Positions 15,205 through 46,609 of a stretch of DNA of 56,079 bases are shown in pieces. The position numbers were made by a program, and so were the translations under genes. The stretch is from a virus (lineage: Duplodnaviria; Caudoviricetes): positions 1 through 56,079 of IMG/VR virus record IMGVR_UViG_3300036945_000489; one strand, written 5' to 3'. The notes beneath the pieces are model-generated. The model did no database searches, was not told the DNA's origin, and saw only the letters and a program-made list of their open reading frames with translations. Positions within the stretch are counted from its first letter, which is position 1; each line of letters begins with the position of its first letter.

Positions 15205-15225
15205 TGTGGATAACTCTGTGGATAA
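15205..15225. promoter_or_regulatory. Tandem DnaA-box pair
   Basis: TGTGGATAA-ctc-TGTGGATAA. Confidence 0.75.
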
Positions 15226-15337
15226 CTATTGTTAAGTATCTACAAAAAAATCCCCTAAAGTTTGTGCGTTTTGGGCTTGACTTTTGTAAGTATCTATGAT
15301 TAACTATATATAGATAAAGAAAAGAAAGGAATTCCAG

Positions 15338-15930: not shown

Positions 15931-15951
15931 TGTGGATAACTTTGTGGATAA
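15931..15951. promoter_or_regulatory. Tandem DnaA-box pair
   Basis: TGTGGATAA-ctt-TGTGGATAA. Confidence 0.75.
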
Positions 15952-16077
15952 CTTTTAAGATCGTTGTAAGAAACCTCCAAAAAAGTTTGTAGAAACTTAC
16001 AAAGAAAAAAGGCGTGTTTGTGCCATAAATGTCTGACCCCTGTGGTAATGTAGAACTATCAGATGAAAGGAAAACTA

Positions 16078-16832: not shown

Positions 16833-17575
16833 TGGAGATTTTTCTAATCGCTTCTGCCCTGCTAAACATTCTAGGCGGAATAACCATTTTGCTTTTGCTA
16901 AAGAGTCTAAAGAATAATCTTCCACCTTTTTAGCGACACGCCAGGCCAGGACTTGACAAAAGCTCCTGGATCTGGTCGGGGGGCGTTATCCTATCGTTAT
17001 AAAAATCGTTAAGAAGATAGTTGCTTTTCCCCTGAATGTGTGATAGGTTTATCTTATAACGAAAGGTGAACTTATGGAAGACATGGCAGCTGATTTTGGT
17101 TGGGACCTCTTTGATGAGGAGGAGGGCTTCAATGTCCCTCTAACCTCTGAGGAGGTGGAGGCTGAGCGTCGCTCTATGGAGCAGGAGGCTCGTGACTCCA
17201 TGATTGGCGAGATGTATAATGCTCGCTACTCATTTGATTGACAAATCCAGGGAAACCTGGTCGGGCCCATCAAAGATCAAAAGTCAAGTCAATTAAGAAG
17301 ATTGAAAAACTTTTCCAGGATTATTAAATGTCAGAGGGTCGTGTTAGTATTTTAGTATGAGAAAAAGAACGAAGCCTTTAGGCAAGGTAAACGAAGCAAG
17401 ACGCAAGGCTGAGAGTCAAGCGTTATTCCACTCTATGCTAAAAGAGGGCAAGAAGCAGGTTGTTATCCCTAAGAAGTTTAAGGGGACACGCCAAGAAAAG
17501 TTTCGTGAAGCCCTTGACAATGAGTAACTAATCCTGTAAAATTATTTCATAACCCCAACAAGAAAGAGGTCCACT

Positions 17576-17881
17576 ATGGGCAGCAACTTTGTAGCAGAGA
17601 TTCAAGACACAGACCTATTCCCTAACTTTGATTTGCGTGACGCTATTGGCATGCACCTTAGAGGTAATTGCTATCCCCCTATCCCTATTGAGATGGCAGA
17701 CGTATGCGTTGAGGCTGTTTATGCCTATGAAGATGGTGACTACTATCGTATGCTTACCCTGCCTAAAATTGGTGATTTCCAAGTCCGCAACCGTGACGGT
17801 AGTATTGAAGTGACTGCAATGCAAGTAGTAGAGAACACACGTATTGAAGGATTCATTCAAGATATGGAGTATGAAGACTAA
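17576..17881 (+). CDS. Early hypothetical protein
   Basis: TTGACA..TAAAAT promoter, GAGG RBS; HL.GN.YPP motif. Confidence 0.7.
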   Translation: MGSNFVAEIQDTDLFPNFDLRDAIGMHLRGNCYPPIPIEMADVCVEAVYAYEDGDYYRMLTLPKIGDFQVRNRDGSIEVTAMQVVENTRIEGFIQDMEYED

Positions 17882-18141
17882 TGGAAGAGTTTGATAAACT
17901 AATGCAGACTATATTGTCTGAGGGCCTTGCTAAAATAGATTCACTATCAGAAGAGGAGCTATACCAATGGATGAGCAATACGTAGCAGAACTATTTGAGA
18001 TGTTTCACAATGGTGATATCAGTGCCAGTGATTTAATGGCGGATCTAGATATGGGTGGCTTTGATGGCGATCTAATTGACTATCTATAAATGTCATACCC
18101 CTAGTCTATAATAATCTTATACCCCAAAAGAAAGTAGCAAA

Positions 18142-18663
18142 ATGACTAACTATGTTGAGATTTATTCAGAACTAATCAAGAAGGCAACCTTTGGCCAGGT
18201 AGAGACTGCCAGTAAATGGTATGTTGACGCTGAGCGTATTGCAGAACAAGTTGCTAAGAACTTAGGTACCACACTTGATGTTGGTGCCAGTGTTATCAGT
18301 GCATTCTCACCTAGGGAGCGTTGGAGCGTAAACGTTGCACGTGCGATTGCATTCTCACTAGGCGAAGAGGTGACTTGCCTAAAGAACAACATAGTCATGG
18401 CTAACAATTCTTTGACCATGGGATTCAGTGCCCTAAAGGGATTGAAGACTAATGCATTCGCTAAGGCTATTGCAGGTGATGAGCAAGCGGTAGTGATTGA
18501 TGTTTGGATGTTGCGTGCCGTTGGTATTGAGAAGAAGACACCTAATCAGTCTTTGTATAATGAACTATCTAACGCTATCAAGGCTGCTGCCTTTGAAGTT
18601 GGTATGACCCCAAGAAGTGCACAGGCTTTGATTTGGATTATCATTAGGGGTAGTGCCCAATGA
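18142..18663 (+). CDS. Conserved phage protein, possibly DNA-glycosylase-like
   Basis: WY..A, SAFSP...W..N, KT.AF, VVIDVWMLR (resembles the HhH-GPD catalytic Asp region), QA..W. Confidence 0.55.
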   Translation: MTNYVEIYSELIKKATFGQVETASKWYVDAERIAEQVAKNLGTTLDVGASVISAFSPRERWSVNVARAIAFSLGEEVTCLKNNIVMANNSLTMGFSALKGLKTNAFAKAIAGDEQAVVIDVWMLRAVGIEKKTPNQSLYNELSNAIKAAAFEVGMTPRSAQALIWIIIRGSAQ

Positions 18664-19197
18664 TTGACTTATCCCTAAGCATATGGGATAATAAAAGGTG
18701 AATGTTTTAGTTGTTGGCGTATGCCTAATATTGTTGATGTTTATCTTATTTATCTTAGCCCCTTTGATAATAGGATTTATCTTTTTTATTGAGACCTTTT
18801 TTGGAGATTGGATTGAGCGTGGAAGAAAGAGAAACTGATGATGTGATGATGCTAGGATGCTTTATCTTTGCAGGTCCATTCTTTATTCTATTAGGCATAA
18901 TTTGCATTCTAGCTTTGTTTAGTTGACAAACTACCCCCAGGGGGCCCGACCACACCAAAGCTGATCTGTCAAGTCTTTAAGAAGATCTTTAAGAACCCCC
19001 AAAACTTTTTCAAATTCTTACGGCGTGTCGCTTTACAATGTCGTAGGGTGTGTGTATAATTGAGGTATAGCAAAAGAGATGTCGCAAAAATAAATAAAAA
19101 AAGTTTAGAAAAGTGCTTGACAAACTCCCCAAACTATGAAATAATAGATTATCAGCAAAAGTTGGTAATAAAATCAAAAAGAGAAAGAAGCAATACT

Positions 19198-19344
19198 ATG
19201 AACACTCTAACTGTTGGCTCACAGTTCACCACCGCTAAGTCAGGCGTTGTAGGCACTATTCAGGAAATCGTAAAGAACGCAAGTGGCTCACAGCGTGTCC
19301 GTCTAGATGTAAACGGACAGCCTCGCTGGACTACTGTAAAGTAA
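19198..19344 (+). CDS. Early small beta protein
   Basis: Probable start MNTLTVGSQF behind a TTGACA promoter. Confidence 0.65.
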   Translation: MNTLTVGSQFTTAKSGVVGTIQEIVKNASGSQRVRLDVNGQPRWTTVK

Positions 19345-19349
19345 TAACC

Positions 19350-19377
19350 TCTGCTGGGTATCAGATAAAACTGCCCA
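19350..19377 (+). ncRNA. H-type pseudoknot copy 1
   Basis: TCTG-CTGGGTAT-CAGA-TAAAAC-TGCCCA. Confidence 0.65.
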
Positions 19378-19411
19378 CCACAACCCACCCCTGAAAAGAA
19401 AGACTACCAAA

Positions 19412-19597
19412 ATGGCTACTAAGACCAAGATTGTTATCTCAACTGAGAAGTGGAACACCACCAAGGGTGAAATCTACAAGGCAGTTGTTCGCACCGCAGA
19501 CGGCAAGTTTCTAGGTGCTACTAATCAGACAACTAACATTCCTGTAAAGGCTAAGCGTAAGGCATCAAGCCCTCGTTTCTTCCTAATGGGCAAGTAG
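19412..19597 (+). CDS. Early basic hypothetical protein
   Basis: ORF with purine-rich RBS. Confidence 0.65.
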   Translation: MATKTKIVISTEKWNTTKGEIYKAVVRTADGKFLGATNQTTNIPVKAKRKASSPRFFLMGK

Positions 19598-19603
19598 TTG
19601 CTA

Positions 19604-19630
19604 ATCCTGAGTATGATGTAAAACTGCTCA
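19604..19630 (+). ncRNA. H-type pseudoknot copy 2
   Basis: ATC-CTGAGTAT-GAT-GTAAAAC-TGCTCA. Confidence 0.65.
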
Positions 19631-19699
19631 CCAATAAATGTCAGACCCCTCTGATAGAATAATGAAGTAAACAAATACCCCTAAAGAAAGAAGTATCTA

Positions 19700-20149
19700 A
19701 TGGCTCGTGCCTTATCTGTAAAAGTTCCAACTGCCGCTGTAATTTCCCAGATTGAGTTGGCTATCGCTGACATTGACGCTAAGGTTGCGTCTTATGCTGG
19801 TGATGTTGAGAAGTATAACCTAGAACTAGAAATCTACAAGAACGAAGTTGCTACCGCCATCATCAAGTATGTTGGTGCTAACACTAACAAGATTGGTTAT
19901 GACTACACCTCAGAAATCCGTATCTCACAAGGACACTCTGGCAAGTTGGAACTAGCGTTTGACGCTGACAAACTTGTTGGCTTCCCTGTTCGCCCAACTG
20001 AGCCTAAGAAGCCTAATCAGTCTGAGTGGTATGGCAACAAGCACATCAACCGCAAGGAAGTCTTGGAAAGCAACCTACGCATTTTGCGTATGACCACCCA
20101 AGAGGAAATCAACGCCTCATCTTACTCGTCTGTAATGGACTTGCTCTAA
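19700..20149 (+). CDS. Early hypothetical protein
   Basis: 149 aa with its own TGTC promoter. Confidence 0.75.
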   Translation: MARALSVKVPTAAVISQIELAIADIDAKVASYAGDVEKYNLELEIYKNEVATAIIKYVGANTNKIGYDYTSEIRISQGHSGKLELAFDADKLVGFPVRPTEPKKPNQSEWYGNKHINRKEVLESNLRILRMTTQEEINASSYSSVMDLL

Positions 20150-20159
20150 GATGAAAAAC

Positions 20160-20188
20160 GACCTGAGTATGTCTATGTAAACTGCTCA
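20160..20188 (+). ncRNA. H-type pseudoknot copy 3
   Basis: GAC-CTGAGTAT-GTC-TATGTAAAC-TGCTCA. Confidence 0.65.
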
Positions 20189-20198
20189 CCACAAACCT

Positions 20199-20327
20199 CT
20201 TGTAAGTGTCCTAGGCAACGGCTTACAAGCGTGAGGGCTAACACGATAACGAAGCAAGTCTTAGACAACCGCAAGGCTCTAAGGCGAAACTAATCCTCCT
20301 GCCTAAATAACAGGGGGATTTCTTTTT
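20199..20327 (+). ncRNA. Multi-hairpin structured RNA ending in an intrinsic terminator
   Basis: Three hairpins, then ATCCTCCTG/CAGGGGGAT followed by TTCTTTTT. Confidence 0.5.
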
Positions 20328-20576
20328 GACTTGACAACTGATCCAAAAATGGTCGGGCAGCTCTAAGTGATAGAAAAAATAGTTTAAGAAACACCATATT
20401 AAATCCCCATAATGTCAGACCCCCCTGGTATAGTTATAGTAATCAAAGAAAGGAACCCCAATGCAAGGAACGTTTAGCATCAACTTTTGTGAGACCTGTA
20501 ATGACTTTGGCTTAGTGTCAGTGGTCAATGGTAAACTAATGGTTCAGTCGTGTGAATGTGTAAAGGGAGATAACTA

Positions 20577-20771
20577 ATGGCTTATGTTGAGTATGATGGA
20601 TTGTATTTTTCAGAGGATGGCAACTATGGTGGTGGCAAGATTATTATTGCTGACCATGACGCTTTCACTGAGGAGCAGATGGAACTACTAGGTTCACTTG
20701 GCGATAACTCTCGCTATGACTATGCCAATGCCGTTTTGAATGGCCAAGATGTTTCTGAATGGGAGGACTAA
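20577..20771 (+). CDS. Acidic early protein
   Basis: GGAG RBS; D/E-rich. Confidence 0.65.
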   Translation: MAYVEYDGLYFSEDGNYGGGKIIIADHDAFTEEQMELLGSLGDNSRYDYANAVLNGQDVSEWED

Positions 20772-20772
20772 G

Positions 20773-20931
20773 ATGGGATACCAATACGAAGTTTCTTATG
20801 TTGCTAACTACTATGTAGTGAGTGATGAAAAACTAACTGATGAGGAAATCATTGAGCAGGCTATTGAGCAACACGAAGACTTGCCAGATGGCAGTTGGAC
20901 AGTTGAGTTGGAGGAGGAAACAGTTGACTAA
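20773..20931 (+). CDS. Acidic early protein
   Basis: GGAGG RBS; start MGYQYEV. Confidence 0.6.
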   Translation: MGYQYEVSYVANYYVVSDEKLTDEEIIEQAIEQHEDLPDGSWTVELEEETVD

Positions 20932-21254
20932 GATAGTTTTAGATGTAGACGCAGACTACAACGGTAGCAACCTTGTAGAACTATGTGAGTTGCTACTAAC
21001 AGAGATTCAGGAGTTTCGTCAAGAGCGTGTTGGCCTTGACATCAATGATGGCTTTGGTGACTACCTTGAGGGACTTATCTCTGCTAGGGAAGTTATGCTT
21101 GGAAGACTTGGAGTACCCCTTGAAGTTTACATGGATGGAGATTGCTAATGAACTTTGACCACCTTACCCCAAGTATGTGGGAGACCCTACGCAAGTTTGA
21201 CTACTACCAACTGAGGAAGTTTGCTCAGATGTTTGAGCCACTGGAGGAGGACTA

Positions 21255-21458
21255 ATGGCTGAATACAGAGATGTAGTGATCGAATGGCACGATGAACCTG
21301 GAGTTCAATACGCAACTACCGTTTCACTTGACGGTGAGTGGAACTCTCTAGACGAGGATGATGATAACATCTTCTTCTACTTTTCAAGTGAGTCAGAGTT
21401 TGAAGAGGCAAAGCAAGATGGCGACAACGGGTATGAGTTCAGGATTGTGGAGGAGTAG
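21255..21458 (+). CDS. Acidic early protein
   Basis: GGAGG RBS; D/E-rich. Confidence 0.65.
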   Translation: MAEYRDVVIEWHDEPGVQYATTVSLDGEWNSLDEDDDNIFFYFSSESEFEEAKQDGDNGYEFRIVEE

Positions 21459-21460
21459 AA

Positions 21461-21664
21461 ATGGCAAGAATCGCTAGAGCAAGTGTTGTGTTTGAGTTCC
21501 AACTAGATGAGGACCCATTGTTTGAGATGGACCAACATGAATGGTCAGATGAACAACGCCTGACTTATTTCAAAGAGATGATGGCAGAGGACCTAATCAC
21601 CATGTCCTATGGTTCTGGAGCAGAACTAATCAACGCTATCGATGTGGAGATTCTAAATGTCTGA
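21461..21664 (+). CDS. Acidic early protein
   Basis: GGAG RBS. Confidence 0.65.
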   Translation: MARIARASVVFEFQLDEDPLFEMDQHEWSDEQRLTYFKEMMAEDLITMSYGSGAELINAIDVEILNV

Positions 21665-21814
21665 GGGTAATGCTAAAGTAGACACTATGAACAAATGCTA
21701 CCAATGTGAAGAACCATTAGACCGTGACCCAGTAGACGAGGTTCACCCCCTATGTAATGATTGCCAGTACGAGTTTGATGACTGGCTACAAAATGAGATG
21801 ATGAGGTTCAACTA

Positions 21815-22006
21815 ATGCCTATGTTCTATGTAAAGATGATGATTGAGTTCTCAGGTGAGATTGAAGCAGACAGCGAAGCAGACGCAGAGCAAAAGGCTTG
21901 GACCAGTTGGGGAGACACTATGGATAATGAGATAACTTATGACGGTGTCTATTCCGTAGATGTTGAAGAGATTGAAGAAGAAGATGACGAAGAAACAACT
22001 GAGTAG
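21815..22006 (+). CDS. Highly acidic early protein
   Basis: IEADSEADAE motif, poly-E/D tail. Confidence 0.65.
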   Translation: MPMFYVKMMIEFSGEIEADSEADAEQKAWTSWGDTMDNEITYDGVYSVDVEEIEEEDDEETTE

Positions 22007-22147
22007 GATTCTTGAAGAGTGGAGTGAAGAGTTCCACAAAGACTATATGGATAGTTATAATCAAGACTTACGCTCTGGCCACTACCGTGACTTATTGTCA
22101 GAGGTTATTGATAGAATAGATGCGTTGAACGCTTACAACAAAAAGAA

Positions 22148-22573
22148 ATGGTGGAAGAAATGAACGAGAGCATGCACCCAGTACTAGAGACACTAAAGAC
22201 ACGCATTGAACTACTTGAGCAAGAAGTGCAGGCAAAGCAGGACAACGTTGACAGTCTTCGCAATGATTTCAAACTGCTACAGGACCGTGGCATTCAGTAT
22301 GCTGAGCGTGTAAAGACTGTTGTCTATGACCTATACAAGGACGGTGGCTACGATGAAGACACCCTACTTGCAGTCATGCGTAATCTTGATATTGACACAC
22401 GTGCAAGCAAGAAGTTTGAAGTCAACGTGACTTTTGAGATAGAACTTGAATATGCCCTAGGTGAAGAGATTGACAAGAGCAACCTTGAGTGGGACCTAGA
22501 GTTTGATGTCAAGTCTGGAGACTATGAAGTTCTTGACTACAGGTCTGATATCCTTTGGAGCAACGAAGTTTAG
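22148..22573 (+). CDS. Early coiled-coil hypothetical protein
   Basis: ORF downstream of the TGTC promoter at 22096. Confidence 0.65.
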   Translation: MVEEMNESMHPVLETLKTRIELLEQEVQAKQDNVDSLRNDFKLLQDRGIQYAERVKTVVYDLYKDGGYDEDTLLAVMRNLDIDTRASKKFEVNVTFEIELEYALGEEIDKSNLEWDLEFDVKSGDYEVLDYRSDILWSNEV

Positions 22574-22585
22574 TAGGGGTACTAA

Positions 22586-22612
22586 AGGCCTGAGCAAGCT
22601 TGACAACTGCTC
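22586..22612 (+). ncRNA. H-type pseudoknot copy 4 (overlaps module TTGACA)
   Basis: AGGC-CTGAGCAA-GCTT-GACAAC-TGCTC. Confidence 0.55.
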
Positions 22613-22769
22613 CCCTTTGGGGACCGAGCAGATCAAAGATCCTTTGTCAACCCTTTAAGAAAGACTAATTATTTTTCCAGAAATATGCTAAATAACCTTG
22701 ACAATGTCAGTGGGTTCCTGTAAAATAGACTTATCACTCAGAAATCCCCTAAAAGAAAGTTGGCTCCCT

Positions 22770-23783
22770 ATGGCTCACGATTTGGAAACCGTAAACGGTC
22801 AGACTGCTTTCGCTTCATTGCGACAGCCTGCTTGGCACAACCTTGGCACAGTATTTCAGGACGAGGTAAACACTAACGAGATGTTGGCGTTGGCTCACCT
22901 TGACAACTGGAATGTTCGCCTTGAAGATGTTGCTATCCCTGATGGCTTTGCTTCAGACAAGGGCTACTCATTCGTGACACGCACGAACCCATTTGACCGC
23001 AACACTAATGATGTTCTTGGCGTTGTTGGTGAACGTTATGTTCCTCTTCAGAATGAAGACCTATTTAGTTTTGGTGACAACCTGCTAGACGGTGGTGGAC
23101 GTTGGGAAACTGCTGGCTCTATCAAGGGTGGACGTGTTGTCTTTGGCTCTATCGCATTGACTGACGGAATCACACTTGACCCTAACGGACGTGCTGACAA
23201 GATTGATAACTATCTTCTAATCAACACCTCTCACGATGGCTCTGTTGCTATTCAGGCTTCTATCACACCTGTTCGTGTTGTTTGTGCTAACACTCTAAAC
23301 TTGGCTTTGTCTGCTGTGAATGGCAAGAAAGATGTCAAGCAAACTTTCAAGATTCGCCACACCCAGACCGCAGAAGGCAAAATCGCTGTGGCACGTGAGG
23401 CTCTTGGACTTGCTCACAAATACATTGACGAGTTCTCTTCTATTGCTAACGCTATGATTGAAACTGAAATCACTAAGGCTCAGTTTGACGACATTGTTGC
23501 TCTTGCCTACCCTGCCCCTGCTAAGGACGCTAAGGGTTCACAAAAGAAACACGATGGCAAGATTGACCTGCTTCAGTCTATCTATGTTGGTGACTACAAC
23601 AACACCATTAGCGGAACTGCTTGGGGTGCTTTCAATGCTCTAACAGAACGCCTAGATTGGTATCGCAACTCACGTGGCGGAAACAACGAAAGCATTTATG
23701 CTTCTGCTTCAGGCTTTGACCCAGTAATCAACGCTGAGAAGAATCGCCTAATGAAGATTGTTCGCCAAACTGTAATGGCATAA
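22770..23783 (+). CDS. DUF932/DUF945 family phage/plasmid protein
   Basis: MAH...PAWHNLG, LGVVG.RY.PLQN, ETAGS..GGR.VF, NTSHDGS, P.RVVCANTL, TAWGAFNA.TE..D. Confidence 0.85.
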   Translation: MAHDLETVNGQTAFASLRQPAWHNLGTVFQDEVNTNEMLALAHLDNWNVRLEDVAIPDGFASDKGYSFVTRTNPFDRNTNDVLGVVGERYVPLQNEDLFSFGDNLLDGGGRWETAGSIKGGRVVFGSIALTDGITLDPNGRADKIDNYLLINTSHDGSVAIQASITPVRVVCANTLNLALSAVNGKKDVKQTFKIRHTQTAEGKIAVAREALGLAHKYIDEFSSIANAMIETEITKAQFDDIVALAYPAPAKDAKGSQKKHDGKIDLLQSIYVGDYNNTISGTAWGAFNALTERLDWYRNSRGGNNESIYASASGFDPVINAEKNRLMKIVRQTVMA

Positions 23784-23944
23784 CAATAAACAACACGCCT
23801 ATCCCTGGACTTGACATCTGGGGGTAGGCTGTGGCCGATCACATCTAAATAGGATTGTCAAGCTTAAAAATAGTATTAAGATATGCTTGACTTTTTCCCA
23901 GAATTTTGAGATAATTGATTATCAAATAGAAAGTAGGAATTCTA

Positions 23945-24442
23945 ATGGGTACACGCAATCTAACAGTAGTAAAAGACACAGAGGGTGAAGTTGTAGTAGC
24001 CCAGTATGGACAATGGGATGGCTATCCATCTTACACAGGAGCAGGAATCATTGGCTTCCTATCTGATTCACAGAATGTTGACTACCTAAAGGCTGGCCTT
24101 CACTCTGTTCGTTTTGTTTCAGATGATTACGTAGATAAGATTTATAACGAGGTTTCTAACCGTGCAGGTGATGAGGCTTTCAAAGAGGCATACCCTTCGC
24201 TAACCAGGGATGTGGGATGGCAGATTCTTGAGATCATTCGTGACAAGATGAATGTGCCTCTAGTAAACTCTATTGACTTTGCAGCGGATGAACTATTCTG
24301 TGAAGGGTACTATGAGATTGACTTCCAGACTAATAAGTTTATTAGTAAGTGGAATGGTATGACTATTGAGCACTCTATCAATGCCCTTCCAATGGTGGAA
24401 GATTACGTAGAAAGTTTTGAAAAAAGCTTGACAAACGCCTAG
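23945..24442 (+). CDS. Conserved phage early protein (MGTR...WDGYP family)
   Basis: MGTRNLT...QYGQWDGYPS motif. Confidence 0.75.
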   Translation: MGTRNLTVVKDTEGEVVVAQYGQWDGYPSYTGAGIIGFLSDSQNVDYLKAGLHSVRFVSDDYVDKIYNEVSNRAGDEAFKEAYPSLTRDVGWQILEIIRDKMNVPLVNSIDFAADELFCEGYYEIDFQTNKFISKWNGMTIEHSINALPMVEDYVESFEKSLTNA

Positions 24443-24485
24443 CCCTATGGCATAATGTATATACACCCCAAAAGTAAGGAAACCC

Positions 24486-25031
24486 ATGCACGTTTTACAA
24501 TGGATTGCTGTAAAGAACCCTGCCACATTTGATATCGAAGAGCTGGACACTTGCAAGCAGGAAGCCCATGACCTTGTCAAATCTAAGTTTGAAGAAATGT
24601 ATTCTGAGAGCGAAGGTCTTGGCGGTTGGTCTGACTGGTATATTGTAGGTGGGGGTAGGTGGAATCCTGACCCTGATAACCAATATAAAGAAGACGACTA
24701 CTCTATGGTTGTGTCTTATGGTGCAGAGCCTGATAAGTTTATTGAAACTATCAACAATGCTATTGAAGAGCGTAAGAATGAGTTTGCTACCTACCGTGAC
24801 CGCTTTGAGAAACAGAACATTGATATCTCTGCTAGTTTAGATAAGTATGACGGAACTACAGATTACTCATTCGACATGTATGAACTAAATAAACTAATTG
24901 ACATGTTGCAGGGTAAGTGGGATATGAACTCATACTTCTACGACCTAAATAACTGGTCAACAAATCCTAAATGGGTGCTTGACAATCTCGACGATTCATG
25001 GTATCTTATACCTGTAGACTTCCACTTCTAA
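24486..25031 (+). CDS. Early hypothetical protein
   Basis: MH...WSDWY.VGGGRW...PVDFH motif; TTGACA promoter. Confidence 0.7.
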   Translation: MHVLQWIAVKNPATFDIEELDTCKQEAHDLVKSKFEEMYSESEGLGGWSDWYIVGGGRWNPDPDNQYKEDDYSMVVSYGAEPDKFIETINNAIEERKNEFATYRDRFEKQNIDISASLDKYDGTTDYSFDMYELNKLIDMLQGKWDMNSYFYDLNNWSTNPKWVLDNLDDSWYLIPVDFHF

Positions 25032-46559: not shown

Positions 46560-46609
46560 ATTGCTTGCTTTTATCCCATACCCAGGAGTGGTGCAAGCGG
46601 AACCATTAG

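Follow-up and report, generated by a model that had tools for sequence, protein, structure and literature searches.

We confirm that four short repeats in IMGVR_UViG_3300036945_000489, an IMG/VR virus record of 56,079 bp with a completeness estimate of about 49% that was analyzed over its full length (here, the window), are genuine members of one large family of phage RNA pseudoknots. From the pattern of sequence change among relatives, the family is predicted to be a compact H-type pseudoknot with compensatory change in both helices. The copies lie on the + strand at positions 19350..19380, 19604..19633, 20160..20191, and 22586..22612 (copies 1 to 4), where an initial annotation had placed them from the letters alone; the sequence reads as that annotation claimed, and a covariance model built from relatives (model R2) scores all four. 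What is new is a portable, multi-context compact viral mRNA pseudoknot that is not in Rfam. Since the same fold is found in phages of diverse hosts and at hundreds of metagenome sites, it likely touches a universal step of gene expression, for which RNA processing, RNA decay, and translation termination are the candidates. We tentatively favor a module at cistron boundaries that folds outside the terminating ribosome and would define or protect RNA ends.

Definition and fold of the pseudoknot family

The family layout consists of a stem 1 of 3 to 5 pairs with any sequence, a loop C-U-[RRGYA]-W, an A-rich linker ending in AAAC, and a strand URCYY that pairs with the loop to form stem 2. Typically, stem 1 has 4 pairs (178/327) and the linker 6 nucleotides (nt; 150/327), so that the element measures about 33 nt with a near-invariant part of about 26 bases. 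Stem-1 and linker lengths are negatively correlated, but only because they add up to a fixed 10 nt in the main class.

In copy 1, stem 1 is formed by TCTG (19350-19353) and CAGA (19362-19365) around the loop CTGGGTAT (19354-19361), and the linker TAAAAC (19366-19371) leads to TGCCC (19372-19376), which completes stem 2 (GGGTA/TGCCC) and is followed by ACCA. Copy 2 consists of ATC (19604-19606), the loop CTGAGTAT (19607-19614), GAT (19615-19617), the linker GTAAAAC (19618-19624), and TGCTC (19625-19629), then ACCA. Copy 3 has the same loop, CTGAGTAT (20163-20170), between GAC (20160-20162) and GTC (20171-20173), followed by a 9-nt linker, TATGTAAAC (20174-20182), and TGCTC (20183-20187), again before ACCA; in both copies, stem 2 is GAGTA/TGCTC. 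Copy 4 is built from AGGC (22586-22589), the loop CTGAGCAA (22590-22597), GCTT (22598-22601), the linker GACAAC (22602-22607), and TGCTC (22608-22612); its stem 1 includes one G-U pair, and its tail is CCCC. The combination of CTGRGYA with a downstream AACTGCYC occurs at these four places only in the whole window.

An exact pattern taken from copies 1 to 3, with the R and Y positions free and a spacer of 4 to 16 nt, was found in at least 120 rows of IMG/VR viral contigs. Among the matches listed, the spacer is exactly 7 nt in 71 of 121, and 92 of 100 distinct sequences have at least three contiguous stem-1 pairs adjoining the loop. When the matches listed are taken together with the three copies of the window (n = 124), the free R/Y positions hold A-T in 94, G-C in 26, G-T in 3, and A-C in 1. 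A second pattern, from which the ACC was omitted, was found in at least 120 rows, at least 99 of them at new loci. The first covariance model yielded 207 matches at an E value of ≤1 in 100 loci (0.94 Mb), many of which are divergent second copies on the same contigs. These matches include the variant loops CUGAGCAU, CUGAGCAA, and CUAAGYAW, the variant partner strands UACUC, UGCUU, and UGCCU, and tails besides ACC.

Model R2, whose seed includes copies 1 and 2 and excludes copies 3 and 4, scored the four copies at 42.3, 46.5, 32.2, and 24.9 bits, respectively (E values of 2e-9 to 7e-5), with the unseeded copies 3 and 4 found at E values of 1e-6 and 7e-5. The next-best match of R2 in the window is partial, at 12.6 bits. 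The first model, with its narrower seed, gave 42.8, 47.1, 46.4, and 8.1 bits, the last at an E value of 0.45. Copy 4 is assigned to a CTGAGCAA...TGCTCCCC subclass (TGCTC-CCC) that is also present in the related loci L006, L032, and L034. Its linker shares bases with the TTGACA of a family of TTGACAA-hairpin repeats described below, and a GAGCA at about 22626-22630 is an alternative partner for its TGCTC. We considered a chance overlap with those repeats and dropped it on account of the recurrence of the subclass in relatives and the score with the broader model R2.

The evidence for the fold comes from a gap-free alignment of the main length class, which holds 81 copies (80 distinct), namely, window copies 1 and 2 and 79 model matches (80 listed minus one duplicate of copy 1); many of the aligned sequences are mutually related. 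Among the 80 distinct sequences, 96.7% of the paired cells can pair, compared with 76.5% after shuffling (0 of 500 shuffles were as high) and 26 to 48% when the partners are slid. Compensation in stem 1, which the initial annotation had read from the four copies, holds across the relatives, with all four pairs changing on both sides. Covariation between loop and tail is likewise borne out, though in fewer positions: one pair of stem 2 changes on both sides, two change on one side, and two are invariant. Pair 2 is A-U in 63 sequences, G-C in 16, and unpaired in 1, and pair 4 is U-G in 52, C-G in 22, and U-A in 6. The first pair is G-C in 78 of 80, and the C-U that precedes it is invariant in the 81 aligned copies. 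About half of the aligned sequences came from a pattern that fixes most stem-2 letters, the covarying R/Y pair being left free.

We also draw on a scan of the loci in which stem 2 was free and only C-U, AAC, and three stem-1 pairs were demanded. Full pairing of stem 2 (5/5) was found in 168 of 1301 candidates, where simple arithmetic for random letters gives about 10; candidates with 0, 1, 2, 3, and 4 pairs numbered 113, 295, 418, 227, and 80. The fully paired candidates sort into RRGYA/URCYY types: GAGUA/UGCUC (64 candidates), GAGCA/UGCUC (46), GGGUA/UGCCC (15), GGGCA/UGCCC (5), AAGCA/UGCUU (5), GAGUA/UACUC (4), AGGCA/UGCCU (3), and GGGUA/UACCC (3). Since the commonest of these types contains a U-G pair, and since the copies are oriented in the gene direction and lie between genes (2 of 379 distinct copies fall inside a long open frame of their own strand), the element appears to act as RNA rather than as duplex DNA.

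Two further identities were tried and rejected. A promoter does not account for a stem 1 that varies yet stays complementary or for a stem 2 that covaries and includes U-G, and the copies are not among the 16 promoter-like sites of the window. A boxA/Nus site, suggested by the likeness of ACUGCUC to rrn boxA, was dismissed because UGCUC is followed by A-C-C/U instead of UUUA and covaries with the loop.

The initial annotation did not recognize the family, and catalogue searches agree. A gathering-threshold scan of the whole window with Rfam 15, the sole Rfam scan that includes copy 4, returned 10 tRNAs and nothing else, and the same scan of 13 related loci returned 5 tRNAs and nothing else. 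At an E value of ≤10 over 19300-20300, which covers copies 1 to 3, there were four chance-level matches of 16 to 18 bits, none of them structurally on a copy. No description of the motif was found in the full-text literature, a search outside which the supplementary tables of PMC10690425 lie; as stated in the accessible part of that paper, it catalogues 10,006 candidate viral structured RNAs, and the motif may be within this set. Another paper, 10.64898/2026.09.22.753630, deals with other matters.

Among known elements, the closest is the autoregulatory pseudoknot in the gene 32 leader of the T-even phages (T4, T2, and T6), which is also a phage mRNA element and has the same topology, with a stem of about 4 pairs, an 8-nt loop, and a 3' partner strand. 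In T4, it reads TGCC-AGCTATGA-GGTA-AAGTG-TCATAGC-ACCA, with a 5-nt linker and an ACCA like that of window copies 1 to 3, and it abuts the stop codon of the upstream segG, which falls within the loop. However, its stem 2 has 7 pairs and its loop 1 has 1 nt, whereas the present family has 5 pairs and 2 nt, and it is linked to a single gene (SSB) and to the binding of gp32, whereas the present family is found behind all kinds of genes. Our covariance model R1 finds nothing at the gene 32 pseudoknot, its best score being 6.1 bits elsewhere in the gene 32 region. According to the accessible part of PMC10690425, the gene 32 pseudoknot is not in Rfam. Another likeness is to the promoter-early stem-loop (PeSL) cassettes of T4-type phages, reportedly described by Arbiol and colleagues in 2010, which are also short conserved intergenic signals at places where small phage genes shuffle. 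PeSL, however, joins a promoter to a terminator-like hairpin and acts on DNA and transcription, whereas the present element is a covarying RNA pseudoknot without promoter hexamers.

Placement at stop codons, tRNA genes, and cassette junctions

All four copies lie in a + strand block of many small open reading frames (ORFs) behind sigma-70-like promoters, at about 13.4 to 28.5 kb, and their neighbors are ORFs without known function. The claim that each copy starts 5 to 12 nt past a stop codon was borne out by measurement. Stem 1 of copy 1 begins 5 nt past the stop (ending at 19344) of a 48-amino-acid (aa) ORF, 19198-19344, and is preceded by two consecutive stop codons, TAA TAA; copy 2 begins 6 nt past the stop (19597) of a 61-aa ORF, 19412-19597; copy 3 begins 10 nt past the stop (20149) of a 149-aa ORF, 19700-20149; and copy 4 begins 12 nt past the stop (22573) of ORF 22148-22573, the last in a run of tightly packed small ORFs. 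The copies are separated by 254, 556, and 2426 nt, with genes between them.

Copies 1 to 3 stand one behind each gene of a three-gene unit that starts after two sigma-70-like promoter matches at 19032..19145 (+ strand; TTTACA-17-TATAAT and TTGACA-17-AATAAT, each 11/12 and each a match to the consensus only). About 90 nt past copy 3, sequence reading and folding point to a terminator-like hairpin, AATCCTCCTG...CAGGGGGATT followed by TCTTTTT (20282..20317, + strand), which our terminator scan missed because the loop is longer than the scan permits. Copy 3 would thus lie in a 3' untranslated tail and not ahead of a gene of the same unit. Past copy 4, a promoter-like site, TTGACA-17-TAAAAT (22698..22726, + strand), is found ahead of the DUF932 gene 22704-23783, and in the loci L021 and L006 the orthologues of copy 1 have TTGACA...TAAAAT directly after them.

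Among relatives, the distance to the stop codon has a sharp lower limit. We measured the distance from the stop codon to the start of the loop in the 317 copies behind which an ORF of 50 codons or more ends upstream: it is 7 nt or less in 3 copies, 8 nt in 4, 9 nt in 40, 10 nt in 36, 11 nt in 14, 12 nt in 24, and 13 nt in 30, after which the counts tail off. Stem 1 therefore has a floor at about 5 nt past the stop codon and very often begins right there. With a stop codon in the A site, the edge of the ribosome's mRNA channel lies at about this distance. The floor therefore falls at the edge of a ribosome footprint and keeps the knot out of the terminating ribosome's reach, which suggests that the fold has to persist while the message is translated. 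The stop codons themselves are TAA in 221, TAG in 79, and TGA in 17.

Stem 1 begins less than 20 nt past a stop codon in 203 of 337 copies; 67 of these have no following ORF or one that begins 100 nt or more away. Another 77 copies lack a stop within 300 nt or lie 60 nt or more from one, and 47 of the 77 are less than 45 nt from the next start. Where the spacer is short, the next start is 20 to 40 nt past the element in 68 of 189. Many copies precede tRNA genes: of the 165 tRNA genes found in the loci, 41 lie no more than 30 nt past the end of a copy, mostly 4 to 14 nt, and these 41 span 10 tRNA types, although 30 are tRNA-Asp genes of related phages. All five tRNAs in the 13 Rfam-scanned loci have a copy just upstream. 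The genes upstream of 126 distinct copies share no common function; 95 have no PHROG assignment, and the others include DUF932-type, Hsp20, SSB (2/126), polymerase, RNR, head-protein, and endolysin genes.

One of these gene families recurs in our window. In L055 (4442-5535), L016, L141, L153, L240, L117, and other relatives, a DUF932 (phrog_1221) gene is followed by the pseudoknot, with a tRNA-Asp next in L055, L141, and L153 and a tRNA-Glu in L016. The DUF932 gene of the window, 22704-23783, is followed by neither a pseudoknot nor a tRNA.

Comparison of the window with its relatives shows that the element lies at cassette junctions, which explains at what places small genes are exchanged among phages of this lineage. 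Blocks consisting of an ORF and pseudoknot orthologous to those of copy 1 were found in 12 related loci. Each block of homology comprises a gene plus its pseudoknot and breaks off at the knot's 3' edge (about 19379-19384, 19632-19633, and 20189-20190), and in L006 the blocks occur in the order A, C, B, which differs from that of the window. In a DNA contig from another sample, position 19345 is joined to 19604, so that copy 1 and the 61-aa gene are gone, and a contig from an RNA run has a similar joint. The four public runs that we used are represented by contigs, in which RNA starts and ends are unreadable, and read depths were not used.

The family extends to cultured phages of diverse hosts. 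Model R2 finds exactly one copy, at an E value of ≤2e-7, in each complete genome of S-RIM4, SIO1, phig1e, D456, and Javan271, whose hosts are, in this order, Synechococcus, Roseobacter, Lactobacillus, Vibrio (by record name only), and Streptococcus. A short blastn search against named phages matched unannotated spacers in phages of Lentibacter, Celeribacter, Roseobacter, Paracoccus, Lactobacillus, Staphylococcus, Streptococcus, Synechococcus, Cylindrospermopsis, and Vibrio and in some gut phages. Of six matches inspected, those of phig1e, SIO1, and S-RIM4 are canonical, that of D456 has C-C in place of C-U, and those of StB12 and Javan271 keep 4 of the 5 stem-2 pairs. In the temperate Bacillota phages phig1e, StB12, and Javan271, the copy lies between portal or minor-head genes and scaffold or capsid genes.

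A scan of cellular genomes was made with a pattern whose spacer is one base longer than that of the main class and that thus represents a rarer spacing class; it returned 9 stretches. By reading, four of these are sigma-54-activator-like coding sequence, two are other apparent coding sequence, two look genuine, and one is doubtful; both genuine-looking matches are contigs of Methanobrevibacter metagenome-assembled genomes. The long-spacer core, with T fixed at Y and the final A omitted, matched 21 stretches in viral contigs, and the long-spacer pattern had zero matches in the window's own genome. These counts suggest that the element is rare in cellular genomes. Exact pattern matches in the bacterial contigs L124, L129, L130, and L132 fall in a region coding for ...LFLDE...L..Q.KLL..., presumably part of sigma-54-type AAA+ activators, and are chance matches in coding sequence.

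Possible roles of the element

The boundary module that we tentatively favor fits the copies at unit ends, the slots ahead of tRNA genes, and the variety of neighboring genes. It would be a cis-acting RNA module of phage messages, in which the 2-nt C-U loop crosses the 5-pair stem 2 and the 6-nt A-rich linker ending in AAAC crosses stem 1, usually of 4 pairs. The knot would lie at the shortest distance from the upstream stop codon that still spares it from unfolding by a terminating ribosome, and it would mark a segment boundary in polycistronic RNA. Fold, distribution, placement, and cassette junctions are shown by the data above; from there we infer an endonuclease cut nearby, after which the folded knot would set the new RNA end and shield it. 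The cut could come from RNase P at an adjoining tRNA or from RNase E/Y-type enzymes in the A/U-rich flanks, and the outcome would be different lifetimes for neighboring cistrons. In the window's lineage, the shielded end would mainly be the 3' end of the upstream cistron, and in the slots ahead of tRNAs RNase P cleavage would yield an upstream RNA that ends with the knot; in some temperate Bacillota phages, the shielded end may be the 5' end of the scaffold/capsid message. As a side effect, the near-invariant stretch of about 26 bases would provide homology patches for the swap or loss of cassettes. Resistance to exonuclease (RNase J) and RNA processing, both proposed by the initial annotation, are possible readings of such a boundary element. 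If the role in processing or end protection is true, the element would be a compact, host-independent part that sets relative gene levels in an operon.

Several observations weigh against this module. First, the helices are weak, with nearest-neighbor energies of -2.2 to +0.6 kcal/mol for stem 1 and -3.0 to -5.3 kcal/mol for stem 2, so that the knot is unlikely to work as a pure roadblock without a large gain in stability from tertiary contacts. Second, a barrier role leaves the near-invariant letters of stem 2, C-U, and AAAC across unrelated phages unexplained. Third, the variable part of the knot goes with either flank about equally: it is within 3 differences in 80 of the 155 site pairs that share only the upstream flank and in 34 of the 63 that share only the downstream flank, the pairs not being independent. 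Fourth, each of the five cultured phages carries only one copy, and the position ahead of scaffold and capsid genes in phig1e, StB12, and Javan271 suits a 5' role over a 3' role. Finally, one contig of the single RNA run spans copy 1 uncut.

The main rival, which we consider less likely, is that the element is a portable, minimal mimic of the tRNA acceptor arm that recruits host RNase P to cistron boundaries in phages of many phyla. In such a mimic, stem 2 stacked on stem 1 would form the acceptor/T helix, the 3' strand would be a built-in external guide sequence, and RNase P would cut loop 1 right after the invariant U, ahead of the first G of stem 2, dividing polycistronic RNA as tRNAs punctuate mitochondrial transcripts. 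In copies 1 to 3, C-U, the cut site, and G...C-A-C-C-A correspond to a U at position -1, a G1-C72 pair, the discriminator base A, and CCA. The same layout recurs in the T4 gene 32 leader (a stem of 4 pairs, a loop of 8 nt, and a 3' strand with ACCA behind it), the copies hold tRNA-like slots 4 to 14 nt ahead of tRNA genes, and RNase P is universal, which matches the breadth of hosts. As reported in the accessible part of PMC12710915, a small H-type pseudoknot carrying a 3' RCCA is cleaved by bacterial RNase P within loop 1, and U is the preferred base at -1. The same part of that paper names the T2/T4 gene 32 pseudoknot with its ACCA as a candidate natural substrate and calls the targeting of pseudoknots in vivo open. 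The acceptor arms of turnip yellow mosaic virus type and the RNase P model pseudoknots (PMC12710915, same part) resemble the present element in that the 3' strand ends the helix and is followed by (R)CCA, with the cut in loop 1.

However, cleavage of the model pseudoknot depended on RCCA and was far less efficient than that of hairpin substrates, again according to the accessible part of PMC12710915. In 119 distinct copies that were not selected by pattern, stem 2 is followed by A in 81, by ACC in 16, and by ACCA in 6, and copy 4 has the tail CCCC. The coaxial helix would comprise only about 9 pairs and no T-loop, cleavage in loop 1 would leave the upstream cistron without its knot, and the conserved AAAC and stem-2 letters would be left unexplained. 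Furthermore, the tRNA-like structures of plant viruses lie at RNA 3' termini and mimic the full T-arm and D-arm, whereas the present element is internal to the messages of DNA phages, has no further tRNA-like parts, and has ACC in only the 16 of 119 copies noted above. If the mimic is real, it would be a bacterial-virus counterpart of mitochondrial tRNA punctuation and a first answer on mRNA pseudoknots as in vivo targets of RNase P, and this open question of the RNase P field would become testable on a natural substrate.

Less likely still is a signal directed at the ribosome, by which a knot at the mRNA entrance of a ribosome with the stop codon in its A site would modulate termination, recycling, or reinitiation or would insulate cistrons. 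The sharp floor suits such a signal, with the loop at 9 to 10 nt in 76 of 317 copies, i.e., with stem 1 at 5 to 6 nt past the stop, the spacing found in frameshift and read-through pseudoknots. The -1 frameshift pseudoknots of luteoviruses (beet western yellows virus and pea enation mosaic virus) are very small and lie 5 to 9 nt past the A-site codon, and their 2-nt, C-beginning loop 1 and A-rich loop in the minor groove of stem 1 recall the C-U loop and A-rich linker of the present element. The short spacers, with a next start often 20 to 40 nt on, would also suit reinitiation or insulation. The luteovirus knots, however, follow a slippery heptamer in overlapping frames, whereas stop codons precede the present copies and no second frame is available for a shift. 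The stops are mostly TAA (221/317), copy 1 stands behind TAA TAA, and many copies are far from stops, before tRNAs, or before terminators or promoters. A slippery heptamer was not seen on inspection, which was not systematic, of the sequence before the four window copies. No + strand ORF of at least 30 aa (table 11) runs from the stop through a window copy, save for a TTG-start 51-aa ORF, 22503-22658, which crosses copy 4 in another frame.

Similarly unlikely, in our estimate, is a binding site or aptamer whose invariant unpaired C-U, W, AAAC, and A are bound by a conserved protein, in the manner of gp32 on the gene 32 pseudoknot, or by a small molecule, as in the preQ1-I aptamer, either as an operator in cis or, after release, as a decoy or sponge in trans. 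The letters of the helices and the loop are conserved far beyond the needs of pairing, and the single copy per cultured phage is in keeping with it. In size and topology, the element is near the gene 32 pseudoknot and the preQ1-I aptamer (RF00522), an H-type knot of about 34 nt in which an A-rich 3' linker with a final C leads into the second stem. Unlike preQ1-I, the element has no Rfam riboswitch match at an E value of ≤10 over 19300-20300, has no link to queuosine genes and no fixed platform, and has a loop 2 of one base that probably leaves little space for a preQ1-type pocket. Its neighboring genes lack a common function, its distance to the ribosome-binding site is not fixed, and no phage protein is plausibly common to such diverse hosts.

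An element that works at the level of DNA, as a site of recombination and cassette exchange or as a structure in single-stranded DNA, is improbable. The cassette junctions and the deletion joint at the element would be expected of it, and G-T pairs are possible in folded single-stranded DNA, but the orientation always follows the genes, the element keeps clear of stop codons, no recombinase is common to such different phages, and homology alone predicts exchange at a conserved sequence of 26 to 30 nt. The least credible proposal, from the initial annotation, is a mimic of a type III toxin-antitoxin antitoxin RNA, which resembles the element in size and pseudoknot nature (ToxI-type units) but is system-specific, whereas the copies here are single and dispersed, not in tandem arrays, are tied to stops and tRNAs, and keep a near-invariant sequence across phages of very different host phyla (cyanobacteria, Bacillota, alpha-proteobacteria, and Vibrio-named phages).

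Other repeats and features of the window

The window encodes tail-fiber and structural proteins, NrdAB, thymidylate synthase, dNMP kinase, Hsp20, and ten tRNAs. Named phages are only distant relatives, as a distant blastn search with 17500-25000 gave 33 weak matches confined to the DUF932 gene; the contigs that have at least a fifth of its sampled words in common (0.28 to 0.41) come from shale-gas and freshwater metagenomes.

Two further observations concern sequence near or like the pseudoknot. The approximately 125 nt between copy 3 and the terminator-like hairpin (20192-20317) give long hairpins on folding and are about 70% conserved in L032; this region may be a small noncoding RNA with the pseudoknot as its beginning. 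On the - strand, between tRNA-Asn and tRNA-Gly, 46569-46589 holds half an element, with CTCC/GGGA around the loop TGGGTAT and an A-rich tail. It lacks the downstream partner strand, scores 12.6 to 13.6 bits, and may represent either chance similarity or the remnant of a copy.

A second repeat family on the + strand consists of TTGACA(A), a short variable hairpin, (G)TCGGGC-like letters, and TTAAGAA about 30 to 40 nt on. It occurs between transcription units at about 15175, 15901, 16953, 17240, 18925, 20329, 22599, and 23810, and one site overlaps copy 4. Inside two of its members, at about 15205-15226 and 15931-15953, are two pairs of direct TGTGGATAAC repeats. We take TGTGGATAAC to be the complement of the DnaA-box consensus, and the pairs may be a replication origin or a DnaA-titrating site.

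The + strand also carries AATGTCWGA boxes, often over a stop codon, at about 16028, 16218, 16449, 17328, 18090, 19635, 20411, and 21656, each followed by CCCC/GGG and a TAnAAT-like hexamer about 11 nt on. This spacing is too short for a -35/-10 pair and is reminiscent of activator-dependent middle promoters, such as those with the MotA boxes of T4. Finally, a leader motif, CCCCT(A/G)AAAGAAAG, stands 10 to 15 nt before the starts of many small + strand ORFs in place of the canonical GGAGG, as at 19388-19411, 19676-19699, and 22745-22768.

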